In this document: positions 5,384 through 52,786 of the stretch, piece by piece
Layout of the letters: every line of letters starts with the position of its first letter
How positions within the stretch are numbered: the first letter of the stretch is position 1
Assembly (NCBI GenBank): GCA_039796155.1
Contig: JBDKKJ010000007.1
Location: 1-56,408, forward strand
DNA length: 56,408 nt
Direction of reading: 5' to 3'
Origin: Candidatus Parcubacteria bacterium
GTDB lineage: Bacteria > Patescibacteriota > Minisyncoccia > Phycocordibacterales > UBA6065
Notes under the pieces: generated by a model
Databases searched by the model: none
What the model saw: the letters and a program-made list of their open reading frames with translations, nothing else
Told to the model about the DNA's origin: nothing
Made by a program: the position numbers and the translations under genes

Positions 5384-5935
5384 CTTTTTTGTATATGGTG
5401 CCCAGAGCTTTTGCTCGAGAATACGAAAACAATAGAGAAGAAGACCGCCGAAAATCCATCCCGCAATAACCTGTGATGGATAGTGAACACCTAAATATAT
5501 CCGCGAGAGACCGACTAAAAGAACTATAAAAACTGTTCCCCAAAGCATGATATGACTCCTTGGGTGCTTGAGAGCTACCCAGCCCAAAATAACCAACGAC
5601 ATGAGCGCATGACCCGAAGGTAGAGCAAAGCCTGTTTCTGTATCATAGGTAATAATAGATGGATCAATTATGTGAGGCCGTTCAATCGCAAAAAAATGTT
5701 TAAGTAAGATAACCACGAGAGCCGATACCACAGTAATCACCACAAGTTCTGCGGCCACTCGCCATTTACCAACAAACATCAACGCTACCAAAAACAAAAT
5801 TGCTGGTATAACACCGTACGCACCTATACCGTATGAAAGAAAATACGATACAGGTTCCCATTTGGGACCAATCGATTGCACAGCATTCAATATTTTGTAA
5901 TCAAAACTTGAAAGAAAAATGATAAATGTCGGCAT
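5378..5935 (-). CDS. PAP2-family phosphatase (membrane)
   Basis: PSGH and SRIYLGVHYPSQV acid-phosphatase motifs; polytopic. The ATG at 5935 lies 1 nt after the upstream stop. The alternative start at 5974 would overlap the upstream gene by 38 nt. Confidence 0.75.
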   Translation of the reverse strand: MPTFIIFLSSFDYKILNAVQSIGPKWEPVSYFLSYGIGAYGVIPAILFLVALMFVGKWRVAAELVVITVVSALVVILLKHFFAIERPHIIDPSIITYDTETGFALPSGHALMSLVILGWVALKHPRSHIMLWGTVFIVLLVGLSRIYLGVHYPSQVIAGWIFGGLLLYCFRILEQKLWAPYTKKL

Positions 5936-5936
5936 C

Positions 5937-6503
5937 TTATTTCTTGAGGCTAACCACTTTCTGAATATCAGCACGGCGAAGCAATTCCTCCTGAAGAGCC
6001 AGGGCTAAATCCTTATCTATTGTCTCTAAAATACCTTTTGATTCATTTTGCACTGTTACAGCATCATCTGAACCAGCGGTCACAATAACCAATTTTGAAA
6101 CTCCCATCAGTTGCTGCGAGAACGTTCTCTCAATTGTAACGTTTTGAATTTGACGATACGGAATTGCAATCTCTTGTTTTGTAAAAATACCTTGTCTAAT
6201 TTTTAATGCATCGGCAGAAATAGAGAAGCCTTGGCTTCGATAGGCAAAACGTGCGACAAGCAAACAAATAATAAGCCCGAGGATTGAAACAACGAAACAG
6301 GTAAGACTCCCAATCGCCACAATACGCTGATATTGAGGTTCAACAAACGAGCTTCTTCTTAAAAGTGAAATAATAATTGCAAAAACCAAAAAAACAGTCG
6401 GAGTTTCAAGCCACTTTGATACGAAAATCAAATACGCCTTCTTACCGAATGTTTGGTAAGTTTCAAAAGAAAGAAGTGGAGCTTCGTTATTTTCCATATG
6501 CAC
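5937..6503 (-). CDS. membrane protein with bacterial PH (bPH_2, YdbS/YdbT-like) domain
   Basis: 188 aa. Two N-terminal TM helices followed by IRQGIFTKQEIAIPYRQIQNVTIE, typical of bPH_2 domains. Confidence 0.7.
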   Translation of the reverse strand: MHMENNEAPLLSFETYQTFGKKAYLIFVSKWLETPTVFLVFAIIISLLRRSSFVEPQYQRIVAIGSLTCFVVSILGLIICLLVARFAYRSQGFSISADALKIRQGIFTKQEIAIPYRQIQNVTIERTFSQQLMGVSKLVIVTAGSDDAVTVQNESKGILETIDKDLALALQEELLRRADIQKVVSLKK

Positions 6504-8022: not shown

Positions 8023-9924
8023 ATGTTTATAGTTAAACGATCAGAAGCAAACCCGCTTATATCTCCCCTTGTAAACAATCCCTGGGAAGCTTCTGCAGCA
8101 TTTAACTGGTCACCTATTAAAGACAAAAAGCTTCTTCATGTTGTATACCGTGCAGTGTCAGAAATGGATCATCTCGACCCAACTCATCGACAAACATCTG
8201 TAATTGCCCACGCAACAAGTAAGGATGGCGAGCATTTTGAAAACCGAGCTCCGTTTATAACCCCTGACACTATTTTTGACGCCTTTGGATGTGAAGATCC
8301 TCGTGTGACAAAAATCGGTGGAACGTACTACACGTTTTATACAGCTCTTTCTACATACCCTTTTAGTGCACCTGGCATTAGAGTTGCGGTTGCGCTTAGT
8401 AAAGACTTGGAAACGGTGACTGAGAAGCATCTTGTGACACCATTTAACGCCAAGGCAATGGTACTTTTCCCTGAAAAAGTAAATGGAAAGTATTGTGCAC
8501 TCCTTACGGTTCACACCGATCAACCACCTTCAGTCATTGCTTACGCTGAATTTAATACGCTCGAAGAGATGTGGTCTCCCTCATACTGGAAAACGTGGTA
8601 CGAGAATCTTTCAAGCCATACAATTGATTTTAAGAGACATAACAGTGACCAGGTGGAAATAGGTGCCGTACCTCTTAAGACAAAAAATGGTTGGTTGGTT
8701 ATTTATTCACACATTGGGCACTACACCGACGGACATGGAGCGATTTTCGGTATCGAAGCGCTTCTCCTTGACCTCAACAATCCGCGTAAAATAATCGGAA
8801 GAACAAAAGGCCCATTCATGGTTCCAGAAACCTACTATGAGAAGACGGGTCATGTAGCGAACATAGCATTCCCTTCAGGTGCGCTTATTGATGGTGATCG
8901 ACTCGATATATACTATGGCGCTGCTGACACACACTGTGCACGAGCGTCTTTGTCACTTTCACACCTTTTACGATCAATGGCACCGCACGGCAATGAACTT
9001 GTCACACGCTTTGCAGGTAATCCAATCCTTGCCCCCCGCGCAGGAAAATCATGGGAAGAAGGTGGTGTACTCAACCCAGCAGCAATTGATTTGAAGGGTA
9101 AAGTTCATCTTCTTTACCGTGCAGCAACAACTCATAATGCTTCAACATTTGGATATGCTTCATCTAAAGACGGATACACTATCGATGAACGACCTGAAGA
9201 ACCTGCCTACAAAGCACGAATGGATTTCGAAGGTTTGGGTCGAAGTGAAAATATGGGATGTGAGGATCCTCGATTGGTTGAAATGGGCAAAAAGCTTTTG
9301 ATGACATACATCGCGTATGATGGAGCAACTCCTCGAATTGCAATTTCTACCATAGCAACTGAAGATTTCTTAAAAAAACGTTGGGATAAGTGGTCAACAC
9401 CTGAAACACTTTCTGAACCAGGAGTACCGAACAAGGACTGTGTAATTATTCCGGAAAAAATTAAAGGTAAGTACTATGTATATCATCGCGCCGGTACAAG
9501 TATTTGTGCTGACACGCTTGATTCACTTGATGCATCCAAGGATCGTATTACAAAATGTATTGAAGTACTCGCTCCCCGAAGAGGCATGTGGGACAGCCGT
9601 AAAGTCGGTATGGCGGGACCACTTATAAAAACCAAGAAAGGGTGGCTTGCTCTCTATCACGGCATATCAGAACACGGAACATATCGTGTTGGTGCAGCTC
9701 TCTTTGATCTTAAAGAACCAACACGTGTAATTTCACGAACTGTTGGACCTATATTTGAACCTACCGAGGACTACGAATTAAAAGGTGTGGTAAACAATGT
9801 TGTCTTTCCTTGCGGAACAGTTTGTCGCAAAGGGATCATCTATATCTATTACGGCGCTGCAGACAAAGTGACCTGTATGGCAAAAATCTCACTCGACGAA
9901 ATTCTTGATATACTGACGGTGTGA
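8023..9924 (+). CDS. tandem double-GH130 domain protein
   Basis: Two complete GH130 modules in one ORF (NPLISP...CEDPRV...GWLVIYSH...IYYGAAD, then NPILAP...CEDPRL...GWLALYHG...IYYGAAD). The ATG at 8023 follows the upstream stop; the track ORF start at 7840 overlaps the previous gene. Confidence 0.85.
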   Translation: MFIVKRSEANPLISPLVNNPWEASAAFNWSPIKDKKLLHVVYRAVSEMDHLDPTHRQTSVIAHATSKDGEHFENRAPFITPDTIFDAFGCEDPRVTKIGGTYYTFYTALSTYPFSAPGIRVAVALSKDLETVTEKHLVTPFNAKAMVLFPEKVNGKYCALLTVHTDQPPSVIAYAEFNTLEEMWSPSYWKTWYENLSSHTIDFKRHNSDQVEIGAVPLKTKNGWLVIYSHIGHYTDGHGAIFGIEALLLDLNNPRKIIGRTKGPFMVPETYYEKTGHVANIAFPSGALIDGDRLDIYYGAADTHCARASLSLSHLLRSMAPHGNELVTRFAGNPILAPRAGKSWEEGGVLNPAAIDLKGKVHLLYRAATTHNASTFGYASSKDGYTIDERPEEPAYKARMDFEGLGRSENMGCEDPRLVEMGKKLLMTYIAYDGATPRIAISTIATEDFLKKRWDKWSTPETLSEPGVPNKDCVIIPEKIKGKYYVYHRAGTSICADTLDSLDASKDRITKCIEVLAPRRGMWDSRKVGMAGPLIKTKKGWLALYHGISEHGTYRVGAALFDLKEPTRVISRTVGPIFEPTEDYELKGVVNNVVFPCGTVCRKGIIYIYYGAADKVTCMAKISLDEILDILTV

Positions 9925-45357: not shown

Positions 45358-45431
45358 TGCCGGATCGTCTAAAGGCAGGACGTCGCTCTCTGAAAGCGAA
45401 AATTTTGGTTCGATTCCAAGTCCGGCAACCA
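45358..45431 (+). tRNA. tRNA-Gln (anticodon CUG)
   Basis: Hand-folded cloverleaf. Acceptor TGCCGGA/TCCGGCA (U1-A72, as in bacterial tRNA-Gln) and U8. D stem GTCT/GGAC. Anticodon stem TCGCT/AGCGA with loop CTCTGAA. T arm TTTGG-TTCGATT-CCAAG. Discriminator A plus encoded CCA. Confidence 0.85.
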
Positions 45432-45486
45432 GTAAAAAATTCTGTCGCCACTGAAATACTCAGTGTGTTTTTGCGTCATAGCAAGT

Positions 45487-46188
45487 ATGAACAAAAAGAT
45501 ATTAATTATAGGAACAGTTGTCATAATATTGACACTCGGCATAGGATTAACTTTGTATTACTTTCGTGATGATATTGTCGGAGCGGTGCCTACCAATACA
45601 GGCAATACTTCAATCATATATAACAATAATGATTACGGATTCACTTTTTCCCTACCTGCTGATTGGCAAGGGTATTCGATCGTTAAAGAAACATGGATTG
45701 GAAATTCCCTAAAGGCGACGGTTGCACAAAGCGGGTCAAAGCTTCTCATACGAAATCCAAAATGGACAATGTCTGCTCCGTATGAAGATTTACCAATATT
45801 AATTTTCACCAGTTCACAATGGAATGCCTATCTCGCAGGAGATTTCTCTGTATCAGCTGCACCGATTACTGCAACTGAGCTGGGACGTAATAACAAATAT
45901 GTTTTTGCTCTGCCACCACGATGGGATTTTGATTACAGTCTCGACTATAAACAGGCTCAAGATATCATCGCAGGTAATCCACTTCGAGCCTTTAATTTAG
46001 AGACAGTCGACATGTTACAGGGCAAGCTGAATATAAACTTTGTATGCGAACAAGTGTTGACGTATATGAGTTTTGCCGATGCAAAATCCGCGGATGCATT
46101 TGTCGCCGATTGTAAAGAAGGGAAACATCCAGAGGTAATAGAAAAATACAAAGTGGATATGAATCTGGGTGATGGTGCTGAAATATAA
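45487..46188 (+). CDS. hypothetical secreted/membrane-anchored protein
   Basis: 233 aa from MNKKILIIGTVVIILTLG (signal/TM); no family recognised. Confidence 0.55.
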   Translation: MNKKILIIGTVVIILTLGIGLTLYYFRDDIVGAVPTNTGNTSIIYNNNDYGFTFSLPADWQGYSIVKETWIGNSLKATVAQSGSKLLIRNPKWTMSAPYEDLPILIFTSSQWNAYLAGDFSVSAAPITATELGRNNKYVFALPPRWDFDYSLDYKQAQDIIAGNPLRAFNLETVDMLQGKLNINFVCEQVLTYMSFADAKSADAFVADCKEGKHPEVIEKYKVDMNLGDGAEI

Positions 46189-46209
46189 TATGTCTAATAA
46201 TGAAAACAA

Positions 46210-46512
46210 ATGATTACAACTATATTCCAATTTTTCGGAAAACTATTTATTCCTTATCCGGCTTTGTCGCTCATGCCTGCATTAATTCTGGTACTATTTT
46301 ATTTTAAATCAAAAAGTAAGTTTATTCTGACAACTGCTATCGCATGGTTGCTGTACATGGCATACGAAGAACTACATTTATTAAGAATCGTTTGTTCCGG
46401 AGAGTGCAATATAAGGATTGACCTGTTGCTTATCTACCCAATTCTCATCATCTTATCTGTAATTGCGTTGTTTATAGGGATTAAAGATATGACCAAATCT
46501 AGTCATCAGTAA
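46210..46512 (+). CDS. hypothetical small membrane protein (cassette ORF)
   Basis: 100 aa, three hydrophobic helices. The stop is 16 nt before repeat copy R1. Confidence 0.5.
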   Translation: MITTIFQFFGKLFIPYPALSLMPALILVLFYFKSKSKFILTTAIAWLLYMAYEELHLLRIVCSGECNIRIDLLLIYPILIILSVIALFIGIKDMTKSSHQ

Positions 46513-46528
46513 AATCTATTATCAGATA

Positions 46529-46557
46529 GGTTCCAACATCGTCCCACACGGCCAACA
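46529..46557 (+). repeat. 29-nt island direct repeat, copy R1
   Basis: GGTTCCAACATCGTCCCACACGGCCAACA (25/29 identity to the consensus). Confidence 0.85.
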
Positions 46558-46628
46558 TTAAATAGTTGAAGTGTTTGGTCGGGTGATGTCTTAAATTTGT
46601 ACCATTAGCGACGTGTTATAATTTTTTG

Positions 46629-46901
46629 ATGAAAATAATATCAAGCACTTTTTTCGGTCTACTGGTTATTGTAGTAACACTGCTTTTTCTATTCGCTGCA
46701 ATGGGCTTAGGAGGCGGTTTGGGAGGAGCAAATACTGTTGCCTTCTATACAGTTTTGGTATTAGGTGTTCTGAATTTTTCTTTTGCAGTCATTACACCGT
46801 GGTTAAGTAATGCTAAGGACAAAAAGATTGTATATATTTTATGTGCAGTTTCAGTTATTTTACAGGTGCTATCTTTCTTTATCCCTAGCCTGAATTATTA
46901 A
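46629..46901 (+). CDS. hypothetical small membrane protein (cassette ORF)
   Basis: About 90 aa, three hydrophobic helices. The stop is 4 nt before repeat copy R2. Confidence 0.5.
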   Translation: MKIISSTFFGLLVIVVTLLFLFAAMGLGGGLGGANTVAFYTVLVLGVLNFSFAVITPWLSNAKDKKIVYILCAVSVILQVLSFFIPSLNY

Positions 46902-46905
46902 AACG

Positions 46906-46934
46906 GGTTCCAACATCGTCCCAGACCCCCAACA
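46906..46934 (+). repeat. 29-nt island direct repeat, copy R2
   Basis: GGTTCCAACATCGTCCCAGACCCCCAACA; identical to R5. Confidence 0.9.
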
Positions 46935-47057
46935 GTCATGTGAGACCGACCGAGGTCTCCGAAATCGCTAGTGTTTGCAATACATTATCAAGACGAGTCA
47001 TGGGCTCGAACTTTCGCTTGAATTGCTGAAATTGAGATATCCATATTTTGAGCCATC

Positions 47058-47082
47058 TTCCTAGTTCGATTCCAGGTCGGTG
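47058..47082 (+). other. degenerate tRNA 3'-end-like fragment (possible att remnant)
   Basis: TAGTTCGATTCCAGGTCGGTG shares GTTCGATTCCA and GTC.GG with the T-arm/acceptor of the tRNA-Gln at 45407-45427. No full cloverleaf. Confidence 0.35.
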
Positions 47083-47089
47083 TTTTTTC

Positions 47090-48166
47090 TTAGTCTTTAA
47101 GCCAATACCAATACTGATTTTTCAGATCTTCCGTTAACTCGTAAGTATTTGCATGAGACAAAACACCCAAGTATGACTGCATACTTTGATGTAGATTATT
47201 TTCAGGAATCAGACCTCTCTGGTAGTACAGCATCTTTTTGCGTATATTTCTCAAGACTCTCTTTTTGGTTTTCGCCCGTAACAATCGATAATGCGGAAAT
47301 ATGACATACCCGAGGAAATCTATGCCCTCGTTAAATTTGCGAATGGATATCTTATTCGGATGGAGTTCAAGTTTCAGTCGTTCTCTCAAAAAATCCTGTA
47401 ATTTAGGCAACAATTCTTCGAGGTACTTTCTATCCTCTGATATAATCATGAAATCATCGGTGTATCGTGCGTAATTTTTCACACGAAGCCCATGCTTAAC
47501 AAATTGATCAAACTCGTTCATATAAATATTGGCAAAAATCTGCGAAGTCAGGTTGCCGATGGGCACCCCTTTGCTGTTCGTCGTAAAAAGCGACAGCGTC
47601 TTACTCTCTCTCAAAGTGCCGCACATTCTGTAACTCTCAATAACCTCTTCCAAAAGAGAAATCGTCTTTTGATCTTTAATTTTCTTAATAAGGATATTTT
47701 TCAGTACCTCATGGTCGACGGAGTCAAAAAATTTTCTGACGTCGCATTTCAGGGCGTAGCATGGACGTGTGTTATTTCTACTCGTCGCGCGAAGCATGTT
47801 GACAACTTTCTCCACGCCTTTGTGGGTACCTTTGTCGATACGGCACGAGAACGAATCGTCGATAAATGTCGGCTCAAATATTTTATTCAACACGGCAAAG
47901 GTGGCGTGGTGAAGCACTCTGTCACGAACGACCGCTTTGTGTATCCGCCTGAGTTTAGGATCATGGATCCAAAAGCCTTTATATGGCCCATGCCGATACG
48001 TTTCATTCTTCAGGTCGCGGTACAAGTCAAAAATATTTTGCTCGATATGGAGCTCAAACTCAGCGACATCAGGCTTGTTCCTTTTATCGGACTTGAATAT
48101 CTCCCAAGCCCTGAATAGGGATTTGGGAGATATTATCGACCAATGTAAATCCTTATAAATCTTCAT
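47090..48166 (-). CDS. DGR-type reverse transcriptase
   Basis: 358 aa. RT motifs including the DGR hallmark PIGNLTSQIFANIYM (IGxxxSQ) and catalytic YTDD. It lies adjacent to Avd and the TR. Confidence 0.9.
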   Translation of the reverse strand: MKIYKDLHWSIISPKSLFRAWEIFKSDKRNKPDVAEFELHIEQNIFDLYRDLKNETYRHGPYKGFWIHDPKLRRIHKAVVRDRVLHHATFAVLNKIFEPTFIDDSFSCRIDKGTHKGVEKVVNMLRATSRNNTRPCYALKCDVRKFFDSVDHEVLKNILIKKIKDQKTISLLEEVIESYRMCGTLRESKTLSLFTTNSKGVPIGNLTSQIFANIYMNEFDQFVKHGLRVKNYARYTDDFMIISEDRKYLEELLPKLQDFLRERLKLELHPNKISIRKFNEGIDFLGYVIFPHYRLLRAKTKKRVLRNIRKKMLYYQRGLIPENNLHQSMQSYLGVLSHANTYELTEDLKNQYWYWLKD

Positions 48167-48168
48167 AT

Positions 48169-48519
48169 ATGAATGACTTAGATATACCGATTTTCAAGAA
48201 GAGTTACGATCTCTACAAGGATTTCTATAATCTGCGACTATCCGTTCCCAAGCAAGACCGCTACACGCTCTGGCAAAAGTGCGAAAGCCTGCTTATCGAA
48301 GTCCTGGAAGGAGTCTTGTTTGCCAGCCAACAATCAAAGTTAGAGAAACTGCCGACCCTCGAGAAGACGAGCGTCAAACTTAATTTTCTGCGAGTCTGCA
48401 TCCGCCTCATGAAGGACATCAAGGCGATTGACGCCAAGAAATACATCATCATCGAGGCGAACCTTGATGAGATAGGAAGAATGCTCGGAGGCTGGATTAA
48501 GTCGACGAAAGATCGTTAA
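48169..48519 (+). CDS. avd: four-helix-bundle accessory variability determinant (Avd-like)
   Basis: 116 aa. PKQDRYTLWQK...EIGRMLGGWIK pattern of the four-helix-bundle / 23S-rRNA-IVS protein family used as DGR Avd. Confidence 0.8.
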   Translation: MNDLDIPIFKKSYDLYKDFYNLRLSVPKQDRYTLWQKCESLLIEVLEGVLFASQQSKLEKLPTLEKTSVKLNFLRVCIRLMKDIKAIDAKKYIIIEANLDEIGRMLGGWIKSTKDR

Positions 48520-48521
48520 CA

Positions 48522-48548
48522 GAAACTTCCGCTTTTGGCGGAAGTTTC
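48522..48548. other. 11-bp hairpin immediately 3' of the TR (minus-strand sense)
   Basis: GAAACTTCCGC-TTTTG-GCGGAAGTTTC. No U-tract on either strand, so it is not a canonical terminator. Confidence 0.6.
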
Positions 48549-48568
48549 CTCGGATAGAGCTATGACTG

Positions 48569-48683
48569 CCTGGCGGCCGACAACCCGATGTTGTCGTTGC
48601 GGTTGTCATCCCTGTAGTTGTTGACGTTGAGCCCGTCGGAATCGAAGTTGCCAACGTTGACGCGGTTACCGTCCGAGTCGAGA
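48569..48683 (-). repeat. DGR template repeat (TR), 115 nt
   Basis: The reverse complement aligns without gaps to 49838-49952. It has 29 adenines, many in AAC codons. Confidence 0.9.
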
Positions 48684-48724
48684 TATTGCCCGCTTCCATC
48701 TGTGTCACCGAGAATCGAGGTTTA

Positions 48725-48925
48725 CTACCTTTGCAGGTCTATATCCTCCCATCTCTGAATTTTATTCGGAAGCAACTTCCATGCAATTGAGCCTGAAAGC
48801 ATCTCCTCTAGAAGCAGGCAAGAAGTTCTCTCTATCCTTAATCGCACTCTGCCGTGATCCGTAAACCACTGGCACTCTGGCGAATCTTCAGGTGAGATAT
48901 CTCGCGAACTTGAACCGTAATCCAA
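48725..48925 (-). CDS. questionable 66-aa ORF upstream of the TR
   Basis: ORF only. It lies between the leftward promoter candidate and the TR; no family recognised. Confidence 0.2.
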   Translation of the reverse strand: MDYGSSSRDISPEDSPECQWFTDHGRVRLRIERTSCLLLEEMLSGSIAWKLLPNKIQRWEDIDLQR

Positions 48926-48947
48926 GCTACATTAGCAAGATACAGCT

Positions 48948-48977
48948 AGTATACTGCACCAATTGACAGATTGCCAA
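48948..48977 (-). promoter_or_regulatory. candidate sigma70-like promoter reading leftward (toward TR/RT)
   Basis: On the minus strand: TTGGCA (48977-48972), 18-nt spacer, TATACT (48953-48948). Confidence 0.4.
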
Positions 48978-48982
48978 AATCA

Positions 48983-49011
48983 TTGACAAATAGTAATTTC
49001 TTCGCTATACT
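48983..49011 (+). promoter_or_regulatory. candidate sigma70-like promoter of the DGR target gene
   Basis: TTGACA (48983-48988), 17-nt spacer, TATACT (49006-49011); 110 nt upstream of the ATG at 49122. Confidence 0.55.
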
Positions 49012-49121
49012 ACACAAGCAGTTCTTTGATAGAGAATCACTGTTGAGACGAGCTTCTTGGGCCTTATTTAGGGCTTAAAAAACTCGTCTCAACTGAGGCA
49101 AGTCGTACTTCTCGGAATCGT

Positions 49122-49961
49122 ATGTCCGAAACACCAGTCGTCCAAAGTAAATATAACTGCGGGCTAACAGTGGAGATACATACCATGAAATGGACAGAAA
49201 TACCGTCAGGTCAAGTCAACGGGGCATTCCAACGCCTCATGAACGCATTCGGCGATCGTGCCGATACGATCGTGGAAAGAATCAATGCAGATGAAGCAGT
49301 CGCACCCCGCGTGGCAACGCTGTGTTGCCACAACGGTTATGAACCATCGGTCTCGCAGGCGAAAGCAGGCGAGGTCATGGGCAAAAACTTCTTCGGCATC
49401 GAGGAAGTCCAAAAGCACTTCGGTGTCACTCTCTCGAAACGGCATCTCGCCTACATGGCCGAGATTCCGTTCTCCGAGGAAGTGCTCAGCGAATGTAAGG
49501 ACACTCACGTCCTTGTTGCTTACGCTCCCATGGCAATTGTCGCCGTTCGGGCAAAAACCGCGAGTGTCAAACTCCCGCCAAAGCATCGTATGTTCTACCA
49601 GCAGGACTGGTATGACAACAACGAGGTGGGAAACGGTGCGGGTGCGCTCGAATGGCACCTTGTCCGCAAGACCTCGATTCCCGATTCGAAGTCGAAGACT
49701 TGGCAGGAGCAACAGGATTTGCTTGATCGTAAGATCGACGAAACCCCTGAAGCGAATGTCATGGTCTATACGATCATCGGACACTTCCTAGCCACTGGCG
49801 AACGCCTGTTCGAGAAGGAGTATGTGCGCACGCGCACTCTCGACTCGTTCGGTGACCGCGTCAACGTTGGCTACTTCGATTCCGGCGGGCTCTTCGTCTA
49901 CTTCTACAGGGGTGACGACCGCAGCGACAACATCGGGTTGTCGGCCGCCAGGAAGCAGTGA
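49122..49961 (+). CDS. DGR target (variable) protein with C-terminal VR
   Basis: 279 aa. The last roughly 40 codons are the VR. The C-terminus ...GYFDSGGLFVYFYRGDDRSDNIGLSAARKQ resembles the variable end of C-type-lectin-fold DGR targets. No signal peptide is seen. Confidence 0.85.
   Translation: MSETPVVQSKYNCGLTVEIHTMKWTEIPSGQVNGAFQRLMNAFGDRADTIVERINADEAVAPRVATLCCHNGYEPSVSQAKAGEVMGKNFFGIEEVQKHFGVTLSKRHLAYMAEIPFSEEVLSECKDTHVLVAYAPMAIVAVRAKTASVKLPPKHRMFYQQDWYDNNEVGNGAGALEWHLVRKTSIPDSKSKTWQEQQDLLDRKIDETPEANVMVYTIIGHFLATGERLFEKEYVRTRTLDSFGDRVNVGYFDSGGLFVYFYRGDDRSDNIGLSAARKQ
49838..49952 (+). repeat. DGR variable repeat (VR), 115 nt
   Basis: 102/115 identity to the TR. 12 of the 13 differences lie at TR adenines (7 A-to-T, 5 A-to-G). 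Confidence 0.9.
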
Positions 49962-49999
49962 GTCTTGATCCCTTGAGGACTTAATCCTCTTGAATCCTT

Positions 50000-50036
50000 G
50001 AGGCTTCGCGAATTTTTTTCGCGAAGCCTCTTTTTA
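50000..50036 (+). terminator. strong intrinsic terminator downstream of the VR
   Basis: 13-bp stem GAGGCTTCGCGAA/TTCGCGAAGCCTC with a 5-nt T loop, followed by TTTTTAT. Confidence 0.75.
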
Positions 50037-50092
50037 TATTTAAACTACATAAAACCTATATTCTAAGCTATACCAGTCCTGTGCGACCGAGA

Positions 50093-50116
50093 CGGTTCGA
50101 TTCCTGTTGCGGCAAC
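50093..50116 (+). other. degenerate tRNA 3'-end-like fragment (possible att remnant)
   Basis: GGTTCGATTCCTGTTGCGGCAACA versus the tRNA-Gln 3' end GGTTCGATTCCAAGTCCGGCAACCA. No cloverleaf. Confidence 0.35.
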
Positions 50117-50124
50117 AAATTGAT

Positions 50125-50604
50125 TTAGTTGGTTTTAGAAAAAGCAGAAACTATTTGATGAAAGAATTTTCCTTTTGCTGCCCCATACTCCGCTTTGCTT
50201 TTTCCTTCATAACGTCGCTTGAGATCATTGAGTTCATGTAGCTCATTTGGATTTGCTTTTAAGTAATCTCTTAGATTTACAAATTGATCCAATGAAGACC
50301 CTATTACCGTTACCACGATATCTATGTTTGCTACATCATCCTTAAAACAAGCAAAACCTGTGTCCCAGCTATCTGGGCGATGTGCTCGATAACATGGCTC
50401 AAGGCGCTCTTTTGTCTTTTCAAATTTACCGGCCTCAACCCTAATGTTTATGTCTAAATCACCTTGCGTGATTGATCCTGGCACAGATGTGCCACCTACG
50501 TGTTCTATCATCACGTCACCAAGAATACTTAAAAGTTTTTTCTTTTCAACCTCAAAGAGATCAACCACATCAACATTTATTTCTCGAAAAGACATTTGAT
50601 ACAT
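50125..50604 (-). CDS. GrpB-family (nucleotidyltransferase-fold) protein
   Basis: 159 aa. IEHVGGTSVPG...GDLDINI pattern of GrpB/UPF0157. Confidence 0.65.
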   Translation of the reverse strand: MYQMSFREINVDVVDLFEVEKKKLLSILGDVMIEHVGGTSVPGSITQGDLDINIRVEAGKFEKTKERLEPCYRAHRPDSWDTGFACFKDDVANIDIVVTVIGSSLDQFVNLRDYLKANPNELHELNDLKRRYEGKSKAEYGAAKGKFFHQIVSAFSKTN

Positions 50605-50651
50605 ACGTGCTTGTAATTATGTCATAAAAACATTCACCACAATCAAACCAA

Positions 50652-50680
50652 GGTTCCAACATCGTCCCAACCCCCTGACA
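50652..50680 (+). repeat. 29-nt island direct repeat, copy R3
   Basis: GGTTCCAACATCGTCCCAACCCCCTGACA. The first 18 nt are identical to the consensus; the 3' part diverges. Confidence 0.8.
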
Positions 50681-50747
50681 AAAAGCTTTTTCATTCTTGT
50701 GTATGAAAACAGCCCCCATTTCTGGGGACTGTCGCAAACAAGACGGT

Positions 50748-51524
50748 TTACTCTGGCCCAAACAATCTGGGGTCCGGTGTAAGCCCGAGCATGCGGATGC
50801 CTTCAGCCGCGTGCTCGTCACGTTTTTCGTGATTCCTGCTTCCTAATAGATCAAAGAATCGTGTGGCATCGATACTTGCCCGCTCCAGACCTTTGGCGAG
50901 AGGTTTTAACTTGCCTTCGAAATACGCCATATTAACAGCATTCTCGCCCGCAAGAGAAATGAGCCTCTCGACAATTGCAACGTCCTGGTTGAAACCTATT
51001 TGCCGGTATAGATCATCCAGAAGCTTTGCCACATCAGGTCGTTTCCTTTTTGTGGCACGACGAACGTTGAAATTGGTCATTGCTTCGTTCAAAACTTCGA
51101 GCCTGACTTCCCGTTTGATACACACCCCACCGACGAAAACTTGCGTTCCCGTTGCTGGCCCGATCTCAACGACGACTTCGCCATCTTGATCAACGCCCAG
51201 TGTCTTCACGATTTTGCGATGCGATATTCCGTGCATTACTTCATGAGCAATAACAAAGAATGCGTCGACAAACACTGGTGGTAACGAATCTTGATTCTTG
51301 CCTGCATAGAGAATGCGACCTGCAAAGGTAGGGGTGACGAGCACGTGATGATTCACGGGATCGTACCCTGCCTCAGAGAGACCTTCTTTTTGCGAGGCGC
51401 AAATTTCATGATTCGTGGTGCGTAACTTGAGAGTATCGAGGATGGAGCGTCTTTCGGGAAAAGCCCCTGCCATCATGACGATTATTGATTTAAAGAACTG
51501 TTTTATTACTTCTTGGTCATTCAT
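50748..51524 (-). CDS. hypothetical protein with HExxH motif (putative zinc metallopeptidase)
   Basis: 258 aa. FFVIAHEVMHGISH. A terminator hairpin (CAGCCCCCA/TGGGGACTG, 50711-50735) lies downstream on the minus strand. Confidence 0.5.
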   Translation of the reverse strand: MNDQEVIKQFFKSIIVMMAGAFPERRSILDTLKLRTTNHEICASQKEGLSEAGYDPVNHHVLVTPTFAGRILYAGKNQDSLPPVFVDAFFVIAHEVMHGISHRKIVKTLGVDQDGEVVVEIGPATGTQVFVGGVCIKREVRLEVLNEAMTNFNVRRATKRKRPDVAKLLDDLYRQIGFNQDVAIVERLISLAGENAVNMAYFEGKLKPLAKGLERASIDATRFFDLLGSRNHEKRDEHAAEGIRMLGLTPDPRLFGPE

Positions 51525-51675
51525 TAGTAAGAGGTTTTTCCTCTGTGTTTTGGTTGTTATTGTTGATAAAAGTGACTATTATATTATACCATATAATTCA
51601 TATATATGCAACACCTACATATTAGTTCAATAGTTTGGAATTACGCTCCAAATTCCAGAATATAATTTAAAATAA

Positions 51676-51703
51676 GCTCCAACATCGTCCCAGACGCCCA
51701 ACA
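51676..51703 (+). repeat. 29-nt island direct repeat, copy R4
   Basis: GCTCCAACATCGTCCCAGACGCCCAACA (one deletion and two substitutions versus the consensus). Confidence 0.8.
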
Positions 51704-51741
51704 AATATTTTTTAAAACGTTTTATAGAGTAATATTAACTA

Positions 51742-52074
51742 ATGTTTGAGCTTCAAACTTTAATACACTACGGACTCCATTTTCTAGCACCAGGTTTACT
51801 ATCCTGGGTCTTTTTTAGACAAGTTTGGAAGCCGAGTTGGTTATTAATGATAGTGACGATGCTGGTTGATTTAGATCATCTCTGGGCATCTCCAGTGTTT
51901 GATGCCGCTAGGTGTAGTATCGACTTCCATCCACTACACTCAATGTATGCAATCGGTATATATTTTCTATTGCTTCTGGTTCCTAACAAGTATATAAGAA
52001 TCCTAGCACTTGGTTTGTTGTTGCATATGGCTGTGGATTTTCAGGATTGCTTATGGATCACTTACTCCTCATAA
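51742..52074 (+). CDS. hypothetical membrane protein (DUF6122-like)
   Basis: 110 aa, three or four TM helices, conserved His/Asp (DLDHL, HMAVD). The stop is 21 nt before R5. Confidence 0.5.
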   Translation: MFELQTLIHYGLHFLAPGLLSWVFFRQVWKPSWLLMIVTMLVDLDHLWASPVFDAARCSIDFHPLHSMYAIGIYFLLLLVPNKYIRILALGLLLHMAVDFQDCLWITYSS

Positions 52075-52095
52075 GCCTTAGCTTTGGTTAATTAG

Positions 52096-52124
52096 GGTTC
52101 CAACATCGTCCCAGACCCCCAACA
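52096..52124 (+). repeat. 29-nt island direct repeat, copy R5
   Basis: GGTTCCAACATCGTCCCAGACCCCCAACA; identical to R2 (30 nt including the preceding G). Confidence 0.9.
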
Positions 52125-52165: not shown

Positions 52166-52786
52166 CTACAAAAACAATTCGCCGATTTCTTGCCAACTTC
52201 TAACTCGGTTACTGATTCCAGTGACGGAATCATTCACTCCATGCGGATCAAATAAAAATGACGGAAGAATCTCCTGAACATTCAAAATCTCCGGCACAGA
52301 GTCGTCTACAAACGCAACCTTGTCACCCTCGAATCTAGCAATAAAATCTCGTTTGGACCGTTCCTTAAAGACTTTATCTCCTGTGTATTCCCACACACAG
52401 TGCACACCGCTGATGCAGTTGGGCACGTGAGTGTCGAGTAAACCAAGGATAACCGGCAGACCAATTGTCTGCCGAGCGGTCACCGTCCACAACTCATACC
52501 TTTCGGCGAGACGTGGAAGGACCGTCGTAACTCCCGGCAACGGCTCGACACCCTGGTGGGTTTCGTGACAGCGCAGGAAGTTTTCGGCGAAATCGAGATA
52601 CACATCATCTTCATTGGTAACTTCACCGCCCAAATAGCGATTGATTATTTTATTGAAGCGAGGGTTATTAACATAATCAGAGGCAACAGAATGTATACCG
52701 TAGCGCTTATTAATATAAGCACCTATGGCTGGAGTAGTATCAAACTTTAAACCATCAAAATCAAAGAACAGAACAGGTCTTTTCAT
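52166..52786 (-). CDS. HAD-superfamily hydrolase-like protein
   Basis: 206 aa. N-terminal FFDFDG motif I-like sequence and a later VDDS motif. Confidence 0.6.
   Translation of the reverse strand: MKRPVLFFDFDGLKFDTTPAIGAYINKRYGIHSVASDYVNNPRFNKIINRYLGGEVTNEDDVYLDFAENFLRCHETHQGVEPLPGVTTVLPRLAERYELWTVTARQTIGLPVILGLLDTHVPNCISGVHCVWEYTGDKVFKERSKRDFIARFEGDKVAFVDDSVPEILNVQEILPSFLFDPHGVNDSVTGISNRVRSWQEIGELFL

Follow-up and report, generated by a model that had tools for sequence, protein, structure and literature searches.

Two described systems come closest to the locus analyzed here. In the islands of the staphylococcal cassette chromosome (SCC), pseudo-SCC units, which lack a recombinase, sit alongside the other elements, and different repeats have been seen to recombine with one another (PMC5397144). 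The tycheposons of Prochlorococcus are site-specific elements with replication genes that lie next to tRNA genes, where newcomers push older elements inward to the island, and these islands gather degenerate remnants together with cargo genes (10.1101/2020.12.28.424599). A tyrosine recombinase is used by 910 of 937 tycheposons, and the flanking repeats are partial tRNAs of ≈40 nt (10.1101/2020.12.28.424599). The locus that we describe lies in a 56,408-nt stretch of DNA from a Candidatus Parcubacteria bacterium (contig JBDKKJ010000007.1 of assembly GCA_039796155.1, positions 1 to 56,408 of the forward strand), referred to here as the window, in which copies of a 29-nt repeat that we call R separate small gene units downstream of a tRNA-Gln gene. 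R is conserved across related loci and keeps one orientation, is anchored at tRNA genes, carries a tail that covaries with the tRNA, and stands on the far side of genes for a large serine recombinase (LSR) that border the tRNA. In our estimate, with a probability of roughly 70%, R is the attR-type junction scar of serial, LSR-linked site-specific insertion at the tRNA-Gln end.

Bacteria of the candidate phyla radiation (CPR) have tiny genomes and few recognized mobile elements, and their acquisition of accessory genes is poorly understood. We found no report of the R motif or of CPR cassette arrays among the open-access papers and bioRxiv preprints that we searched.

Repeat R in the window and across the CPR

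R occurs five times in the window, always on the plus strand, with starts at 46529, 46906, 50652, 51675, and 52096 (R1 to R5) and in-register spacings of 377, 3746, 1023, and 421 nt. A first-pass annotation made from the letters of the window had already reported these copies. Four of its starts and its first two spacings stand as given, whereas the fourth start shifts from 51676 to 51675 and the last two spacings from 1024 and 420 to the values above. The five same-strand copies are real, as shuffling leads one to expect 0.00 matches to the 29-mer and 0.01 to the 18-mer. We also scored both strands of the window with a weight matrix derived from 338 R copies of other genomes. The five sites reached 35–52 bits, every other position remained at or below 8 bits, and the best score in 20 shuffles was 3.2 bits; no further copies were found on either strand in the other 50 kb of the window.

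The five copies share the invariant core TCCAACATCGTCCCA. R2 and R5 are identical over 30 nt and nothing is conserved in the sequence flanking R among the window copies, both as first annotated, and R3 is a deviant copy with a 1-nt deletion and an aberrant tail. The repeat is C-rich, G-poor, intergenic, and non-palindromic. R1, R2, and R5 follow the stop codons of small plus-strand open reading frames (ORFs) by 16, 4, and 21 nt, in agreement with the 4–21 nt annotated. The annotation had further seen in R two CCAACA half-sites placed 21 nt apart. The start-to-start distance is in fact 19 nt, and the second word is no conserved half-site: it is a copy of the tRNA 3′ end and varies with the tRNA, so that other genomes show forms such as CCAGCA, CCGACA, and CCCGC.

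To look for R elsewhere, we took a pattern that fits all five copies and scanned a set with a single genome for each species of bacteria and archaea. Matches fell in 22 contigs, nearly all of them labeled Patescibacteria (Paceibacterota/Parcubacteria, Saccharibacteria, Liptonbacteria, and Pacebacteria), with about one match expected by chance, by our estimate for 20 specified bases, and a scan of metagenomes contributed at least 120 further contigs. The counts of related loci used below (136 non-redundant, 142, and 143), which we designate by L numbers, rest on the matches listed and are lower bounds, as is the presence of the R core GTTCCAACATCGTCCCA in >140 CPR/Patescibacteria loci. Among the matches listed for 142 loci, the copies within a locus share a strand almost without exception (341 against 1), at a median spacing of 547 nt. 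Most loci hold 2–10 copies. Because even contigs of 0.66–1.03 Mb contain a single matching stretch each, R is clustered and not dispersed; the genome-wide scatter that the annotation had raised as the contrary case is thus not what we see.

Alignment of 68 copies gives the consensus A.AAAR-GTTCCAACATCGTCCCA-n-AC-n-GCC-AA-CAA, with no conservation on either side. The motif seen across genomes reaches 6 nt further in the 5′ direction, as A.AAAR. Intervals between copies typically hold one gene encoding 50–300 aa, and units of 182–400 nt are common. About two-thirds of the cassette genes lie on the same strand as R, with the stop codon 0–10 nt before it, and about one-third are reversed. Nameable cargo in the related loci comprises NUDIX, α/β hydrolase, deaminase, SET, and S51 peptidase genes, and an all-against-all BLAST of ORFs revealed no gene that adjoins all arrays. 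Diverged forms of the repeat occur in L191 (11814-19795; RTTCGAACATCnTCCCAnGTTCGGAGC, tail GGAGC) and beside an LSR gene that targets tRNA-Trp in L186 (4720; TTTCGAATCTCGTCCCACAGGGCCCGC), so the family is broader than the 17-mer used in the scans.

tRNA anchors, large serine recombinases, and proposed att-site geometry

Of 136 non-redundant loci, 36 have a same-strand tRNA gene before the first R (Gln 28, Pro 4, Ser 2, Asp 1, and Ala 1). Where at least 2.5 kb of upstream sequence is available, such a gene lies within 2.5 kb in 16 of 40 loci; on the downstream side, it is seen in 0 of the 30 loci for which 2.5 kb can be read. In the window, the tRNA-Gln gene precedes R1 by 1.1 kb, and its 3′ part (45407-45431) reads GGTTCGATTCCAAGTCCGGCAACCA.

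The tail of R equals the 3′ end of the tRNA over 4–12 nt. R positions 25-26 match tRNA positions 72-73 in 70 of 87 copies; when tRNAs were permuted among loci, the mean was 32 matches and the maximum 57 in 2000 trials. Arrays at tRNA-Gln carry the tails CAAC, CAGC, or CAGT, with CGAC at tRNA-Pro, CCCGC at tRNA-Asp, CCGC at tRNA-Ser, and AGGGCGGAC at tRNA-Lys; the tail at tRNA-Trp is a near match with one indel. Alleles are tracked as well. A tRNA-Gln ending in ...GGCAAC is paired with an R ending in GCCAAC, tRNAs ending in ...CCCAGC or ...GGCAGC with CCAGC, and those ending in ...CCCCCAGT with CCCCCAGT; likewise, tRNA-Pro ...CCCGAC goes with CCGAC, tRNA-Asp ...GGCCCGC with GGCCCGC, and tRNA-Ser ...CCGC with CCGC.

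ORF clustering brought out a sole recurrent recombinase family, an LSR with Resolvase, Recombinase, and Zn_ribbon_recom domains whose members are 43–64% identical. In the nine loci ascertained through the motif, the LSR gene always abuts a tRNA or tRNA-like site, lies on the strand opposite to R, and is followed by the first R 2–7 kb beyond it. Its stop codon falls within ≈30 nt of the tRNA 3′ end in L061 and L120 (tRNA-Gln) and L134 (tRNA-Ser) and within the same distance of the tRNA-like site in L015 and L126. We also ran a reverse test that started from the LSR protein, thereby avoiding ascertainment via R, and that covered 9 LSR genes in 8 loci. A tRNA abuts the LSR stop codon in 6 of 9 cases (Gln 2, Ser 2, Lys, and Trp), and an R-type site lies 3–7 kb past the LSR gene start, on the predicted strand, in 8 of 9. 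The exception is the first LSR of L185, whose sole nearby R-type site is just past the stop codon and forms the boundary of the neighboring element. Tails in this protein-first set fit the tRNA, at 9 of 9 positions for Lys (AGGGCGGAC) and over 12 nt in one Ser case. The loci in which an LSR abuts a tRNA are L061, L120, L134, L181, L182, L185, L186, L187, and L188.

Homologues of the LSR number >2,500 at E < 1e-40, and the named ones are from the CPR. Directly upstream of the LSR gene in these elements are a helix-turn-helix (HTH) gene and a REP_ORF2-G2P/RepSA-type gene, and the autonomous elements of the family span 3.7–7 kb with R at the far end. The LSR elements of L181-L189 share a module composed of the HTH gene, small ORFs, and a REP_ORF2-G2P/RepSA-like gene overlapping the LSR start; among their cargo are TIR, Zeta-toxin, Mrr, and HNH genes, suggestive of defense functions. 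Two LSR elements stand in tandem in L185 (10001-19084), where the distal one abuts tRNA-Ser and has its terminal R ≈460 nt from the stop codon of the second LSR.

When aligned at their tails, the tRNA reads GGTTC-GAT-TCCAAGTCCGGC-AAC and R reads GGTTC-CAACATCG-TCCCAGACGGCC-AAC. The proximal 12 nt are alike (TCCAAGTCCGGC in the tRNA, TCCCAGACGGCC in R), and the distance from GGTTC to the tail is 20 nt in the tRNA and 25 nt in R, a 5-nt shift that is the same in tRNA-Gln, Pro, and Asp arrays. In the attB half-sites of serine integrases, the motif of the zinc-ribbon domain lies 5 bp nearer the central dinucleotide than in attP (Rutherford et al. 2013, PMC3783163). Taken with this rule, the GGTTC shift and the likeness of the proximal stretch and tail give R, at the level of sequence, the form expected of an attR site, in which a P half-site of the element would be joined to the displaced target end. 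The dinucleotide at R 25-26 (tRNA 72-73) is our preferred guess for the crossover because these positions covary, and strand exchange may possibly occur there. Partner sites in attP × attB recombination share an identical central dinucleotide, and the tracking of tRNA 72-73 by R 25-26 would fit this. We had also considered R as a plain copy of the tRNA-Gln 3′ end, but only GGTTC, the proximal ≈12 nt, and the tail are alike, and the repeat was recast as a P-type mimic. The sequence AAGTTGAGTTTAGTTTATATCGCTC(R)GGA recurs as a unit start directly after an R tail or tRNA end (L003 ≈2300, L012 ≈1235, L015 ≈5800, and L173 ≈1530); candidate identities are a conserved beginning of units (P′ side), a small RNA, and R in decayed form.

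In the mechanism that we propose, the left ≈24–26 nt of R (A.AAAR-GTTCCAACATCGTCCCAnAC...) would be a conserved, element-borne half-site, the P arm. This arm would imitate the T-arm and acceptor 3′ strand of the tRNA with GGTTC set 5 bp further from the crossover, and the last few nucleotides of R would copy the 3′ end of the targeted tRNA. A recombinase would join the element site (P arm, crossover, unit start) to the tRNA 3′ end, an insertion that would restore the tRNA and leave R on the far side. Repeated insertion at the tRNA would then push older units outward and build an array of the form tRNA-unit-R-unit-R. We infer that the catalyst is an LSR, that the crossover lies near R positions 20-27, and that recombinase-less cassettes may be moved in trans, by analogy with the pseudo-SCC units of staphylococcal SCC islands.

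Cassette turnover and array anatomy

Relatives differ in their cassettes, and the breakpoints of this turnover fall at the tRNA end and within R. The view of the first-pass annotation that the repeats delimit gene cassettes is borne out by these comparisons: cassette-level variation appears between the window and L190 and in further pairs, and serial site-specific insertion, which the annotation had entertained, is the best account of the repeats. Gene order in the window and in L190 is the same on both flanks, with amino-acid identities of 98% for Pif1, 94% for DAGK, 90% for a cupredoxin, 87% for DsbD, and 86% for a 191-aa membrane protein, whereas none of the nine window cassette genes is present in L190. 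The distance from tRNA-Gln to the gene for an NT5C-like protein is 0.9 kb with 1 R in L190 versus 6.7 kb with 5 R in the window, and the L190 interval contains one small ORF, one R, and a DUF2726 gene. Homology between the two stops right after the tRNA ...GGCAACCA (CCA end) and restarts directly after the R5 tail (...ACA), at ATAAAAAAGCACCG. L191, a more distant relative, has at least 6 diverged R copies beside the same NT5C-like gene.

Further pairs show the same behavior. L141 and L173 have flanks that are 97–98% identical and carry one versus three unrelated cassettes between the tRNA end and a shared distal site; their R arms differ up to position 21 and are identical from position 22 on. 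In an island that grows by accretion, variation would be concentrated near the target and older units would persist distally. Among the few pairs compared, the differences between L141 and L173 are confined to tRNA-proximal units, the distal R and its flank being common to both; the window and L190 exhibit complete replacement of array content. A SET-domain cassette that is >99% identical internally lies beside tRNA-Gln(TTG) in L064 and in an internal position in L173, and its homology ends on the left at the tail and on the right at about R position 20. L153 and L161 have one common cassette, from R to R, at 91% identity in unrelated surroundings.

The array of the window and its right flank comprise the following features.

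45358-45431, plus strand: tRNA-Gln (CTG), found by ARAGORN and Rfam; array anchor and proposed attB-type site
45432-46557, plus strand: Unit 0, a 241-aa ORF (45463-46188) and a 100-aa membrane ORF (46210-46512) with no Pfam family, closing with R1
46529-46557, plus strand: R1, GGTTCCAACATCGTCCCACACGGCCAACA, 50.1 bits by weight matrix
46572-46590, minus strand: degenerate inverted R-like stretch, TGTTTGGTCGGGTGATGTC, from folding and direct reading
46558-46934, plus strand: Unit 1, a 91-aa membrane ORF (46626-46901), closing with R2 (46906-46934)
46935-50116, mixed strands: Unit 2, a complete diversity-generating retroelement (DGR; Pfam RVT_1, bAvd)
47090-48166, minus strand: reverse transcriptase of the DGR (Pfam RVT_1)
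48169-48519, plus strand: bAvd of the DGR (Pfam bAvd)
48566-48683, minus strand: template repeat (TR) of the DGR
49122-49961, plus strand: DGR target gene, 279 aa, with the variable repeat (VR; 49838-49955) at its 3′ end
50094-50116, plus strand: tRNA-Gln 3′-end-like fragment, GGTTCGATTCCTGTTGCGGCAAC, equal to the resident tRNA 3′ end at 19 of 23 positions
50117-50680: Unit 3, GrpB (50125-50604, minus strand; Pfam GrpB), closing with R3 (50652-50680; 34.8 bits)
50681-51703: Unit 4, a 258-aa HExxH protein (50748-51524, minus strand) with no Pfam family, closing with R4 (51675-51703)
51704-52124, plus strand: Unit 5, a DUF6122 membrane protein (51742-52074; Pfam DUF6122), closing with R5 (52096-52124)
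52166-52786, minus strand: NT5C/HAD-like protein, conserved right flank outside the array

The first-pass annotation had missed the tRNA-Gln anchor and therefore left out the first unit, 45432-46557. Both genes of Unit 0 are absent from L190, and an exact-match look-up of the 241-aa ORF (45463-46188) returned nothing. All six units (0-5), like most units of the arrays in general, are recombinase-less and consist of single genes or small modules, and one of the six is a complete DGR; this shows that a complete DGR travels as one cassette. Its TR and VR are 88% identical, with 12 of 14 differences at TR adenines, and a GC-rich hairpin lies 3′ of the VR at about 49996-50027. In place of R, Unit 2 ends with the fragment at 50094-50116, which has tRNA-type (B-type) spacing. 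The interval annotated as "DGR plus GrpB" does hold both, but as two units split by this fragment. R5 is the distal end of the array, after which the conserved chromosome picks up. Homologues of the NT5C/HAD-like protein are syntenic in L190 (71% identity) and lie beside another R array in L191 (54%).

The inverted R-like stretch at 46572-46590 lies 14 nt past R1 and can pair with it as a 56-nt hairpin, and R4 is likewise able to pair with the region around the DUF6122 start codon (51742). We rejected a hairpin, of RNA or DNA, as an explanation of R: no structure common to the copies was found, and R1 and R4 pair with different downstream sequence. Membership in a known RNA family was set aside as well; in the window and 20 loci, Rfam found tRNAs only.

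Fragments of tRNA appear in other loci too. In L068 (11-123), L120 (8-120), and L062 (7773-7943), a complete tRNA-Gln is followed 16–80 nt on by a 3′ fragment of a different tRNA-Gln allele, which is evidence that another kind of element, one bringing a tRNA or part of a tRNA, uses the site. Units of 130–190 nt occur directly after a tRNA or R in L091 (5217-5368 and about 8290-8450), L093 (112-287), and L008 (392-737, 4029-4164, and 4991-5180). Each combines a terminator hairpin and a conserved stretch with an exact duplicate of the final 17–23 nt of the tRNA, to which an upstream segment is complementary, and Rfam gave no match to these units. The conserved stretch in L091 and L093 is CGAAAAGCTTTTGAG...GTCCAAAAGGTnTACTGAAnCTGTAAG. 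For the ≈150-nt unit of these two loci, nhmmer gave nothing, and a regular-expression search returned these two loci alone.

Alternatives and comparison with known systems

Several observations weigh against serial, LSR-linked insertion as the origin of R. The att sites of LSRs usually have a conserved or palindromic right half, and attP is quasi-palindromic; neither the 68 aligned copies nor the sequence beside the tRNA in LSR elements displays conserved or palindromic right half-sites (P′, B′). The breakpoint comparisons only bracket the crossover to R positions 20-27, with one cassette pair placing it to the left of R position 21 and another to the right, and R positions 19-24 match the tRNA loosely in many copies. 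Some units in several arrays are closed by tRNA 3′ fragments instead of R, which hints at a second insertion route. No LSR or other recombinase was detected in the 56 kb by Pfam analysis of local ORFs, tblastn with five LSRs, or a six-frame scan for the tyrosine-recombinase box II, in line with the first-pass observation that no integrase is visible. We saw no within-strain variation: the window is matched at 100% identity by four further assemblies of the strain. One locus, L163, encodes an XerC/D-like tyrosine recombinase (HVLRHSFAT, LGHASINTTQIY; 5431-6471) 13 nt beyond its last R. Finally, canonical serine integrases do not recombine attP with attL, so that stacking requires the tRNA-side junction to be still usable as a target, and an enzyme that stacks units despite attL would have to read mainly the left half-sites or pair sites in a relaxed manner. 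A precedent exists in SCC, where serine recombinases act on several direct repeats, including those around recombinase-less units (PMC5397144).

A somewhat unlikely alternative is that the R copies are true attR scars but that the units are eroded full LSR-Rep elements whose recombinase and replication modules have been deleted, making the array a graveyard and not a capture platform. Decay of this kind would suit the recombinase-less content of the window, the identity of the four other strain assemblies, and the degenerate features at R3, 46572, and 50094. It accommodates less well that the left ends of units coincide exactly with the preceding R tail or tRNA end, which is not expected from random deletions, that one and the same recombinase-less cassette, with homology that stops at the sites, recurs at 91% to >99% identity in distinct genomes and array positions, and that units as small as 182–400 nt are common.

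We regard it as improbable that the same serial insertion at the tRNA end is catalyzed by a tyrosine recombinase, whether an Xer-type enzyme of the host or an integrase with its gene elsewhere, acting through a 6–8-bp overlap at R ≈21-27. Heteroduplex resolution across such an overlap would fit the conflicting assignment of R 21-22 in the two cassette pairs, tRNA 3′ fragments of 17–23 nt are typical of tyrosine-integrase islands and occur in several arrays as well as at 50094 in the window, and the XerC/D-like ORF of L163 sits directly beside the last R. That ORF is, however, the one tyrosine recombinase that a box-II/LGH motif search found in 1009 ORFs of 143 loci, among the matches listed, whereas the LSR recurs at the exact boundary. 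Moreover, R has no inverted core-type arms around a spacer, and the 5-bp offset of GGTTC is a specific feature of serine integrases.

It is very improbable that R is a cis-acting expression or structural signal (promoter, operator, terminator, REP-like, or DNA-uptake sequence) with no role in recombination. The repeat is intergenic, C-rich, and G-poor, and in many cases a terminator hairpin follows it or a gene begins 30–70 nt downstream. Its strand nevertheless stays constant whatever the orientation of the flanking genes, about one-third of cassettes being reversed; it forms one cluster per contig even at 0.66–1.03 Mb, its tail tracks the neighboring tRNA, it coincides with homology breakpoints between relatives, and it has no Rfam match. 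Specific candidates of this class fell individually. Promoter readings (ECF-type, sigma-54-type, and -35/-10) were ruled out by sequence and by the independence of R from gene orientation, and dif, Ter, DNA-uptake-sequence, and REP readings by clustering, polarity, and asymmetry. Repetitive extragenic palindromic (REP) sequences or bacterial interspersed mosaic elements (BIME) are present in many copies, dispersed over the genome in both orientations, and are usually palindromic; here the five copies are clustered, the strand ratio is 341:1 among the matches listed, and R is non-palindromic. A dif-type site is 28 bp long, with two inverted 11-bp arms and a 6-bp spacer. R lacks inverted arms, and there is no turning point of cumulative GC skew at the array, which removes an integrative mobile element exploiting Xer (IMEX). 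Clustered regularly interspaced short palindromic repeats (CRISPR) have regular repeats with spacers of 25–50 nt; the first-pass annotation rightly excluded them, as the spacings here are 377–3746 nt and filled with genes.

An attP copy in viral contigs was rejected because 34 of 34 17-mer matches fall in a single coding gene of high GC content (...VWDDVGTFDGRPWRG...), which has no relation to the CPR site. The 20-mer GTTCCAACATCGTCCCAGAC recurs letter for letter in this conserved gene of IMG/VR contigs L027-L060 (antisense ...VVWDDVGTFDGRPWRGAVDIV...), which looks like a cytosine-5 methyltransferase gene, and the match is probably a coincidence. The LSR frame, if continued over the circular junction into R, would also read VWDDVGT.

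Lastly, we find it hardly credible that the locus is an integron or CALIN (attC sites clustered without an integrase), in which an IntI-type integrase would recombine R, as an atypical attC, in folded single-stranded form. Mostly single-gene cassettes, a single site orientation, sites 0–20 nt past plus-strand ORF stops, and content that varies between relatives recall integrons, but the five copies have neither a hairpin nor R''-L''/L'-R' symmetry in common, most of their fold z-scores are unremarkable and the structures differ from copy to copy, the primary sequence of R (17-nt core) is conserved across phyla where attC conserves structure, and tRNA anchoring and tail covariation have no integron counterpart. 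The annotation was right that R is unlike a palindromic attC, as no attC-like hairpin appears in the folds; its suggestion of integron-family membership does not hold, given this absence and that no IntI was found in the window or recurring in the 143 related loci.

Going beyond insertion as such, we tentatively put forward, as a possibility that we hold at less than even odds, that the arrays are an integron-like capture platform of independent origin in the CPR. The tRNA 3′ end would play the part of attI and R that of attC, and an LSR, whose gene would lie on a replicative integrative element or at another place in the genome, would move recombinase-less single-gene cassettes in and out in trans without strict attP × attB directionality, as only left half-sites would be read; whole systems such as DGRs might be traded among these reduced genomes in this way. 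If an LSR does act on recombinase-less cassettes, the arrays would represent a second, serine-recombinase solution to the integron problem and could be a source of compact tRNA-directed integrases. In practical terms, GTTCCAACATCGTCCCA provides a sequence tag for the main variable locus in many CPR lineages, the LSR family (>2,500 members) is a candidate enzyme family, and the att-site model predicts both the 5-bp shift of GGTTC and a dinucleotide match to tRNA 72-73.

Among known systems, SCC (CcrAB, CcrC) shares with the model proposed here insertion by a large serine recombinase where a single conserved gene has its 3′ end, and in both, tandem elements are separated by short direct repeats in the same orientation. 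The target differs, being a tRNA gene here (Gln; also Pro, Ser, Lys, Asp, and Trp) and rlmH/orfX in SCC. Here, CPR bacteria are the hosts, the units are mostly single genes of 0.2–1 kb, the autonomous element has a Rep-type gene, and the repeat would combine a half-site of ≈26 nt borne by the element with a short stretch copied from the end of the target. Tycheposons share the tRNA targets, replication genes, and serial insertion. In contrast to theirs, the boundary repeat described here copies only the last 4–12 nt of the tRNA, with the rest being non-tRNA sequence conserved across phyla, and the linked recombinase is a large serine recombinase.

Integrons are likewise capture arrays of mostly single-ORF cassettes that end in a site of one orientation, carry accessory genes, and have one privileged entry point, attI there and the tRNA end here. 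They differ in that no IntI, attC hairpin, or single-strand folding signal was found in our arrays, where sequence rather than structure is conserved and entry is at a tRNA. The serine integrases of phages and integrative and conjugative elements (A118/LI, Bxb1, and phiC31) have the same domain architecture as the LSR and the 5-bp shift of the motif between attP and attB (PMC3783163), whereas the canonical systems are strictly attP × attB and build no arrays, and their attP is quasi-palindromic where the right half is not conserved here. The array is best read not as an integron but as a functionally integron-like locus closest to SCC composite islands and tycheposons. In kind, it is a target-site-anchored accretion island, and what is new about it is its CPR hosts, a phylum-spanning P-type boundary site, very small single-gene units, and a DGR as a unit.

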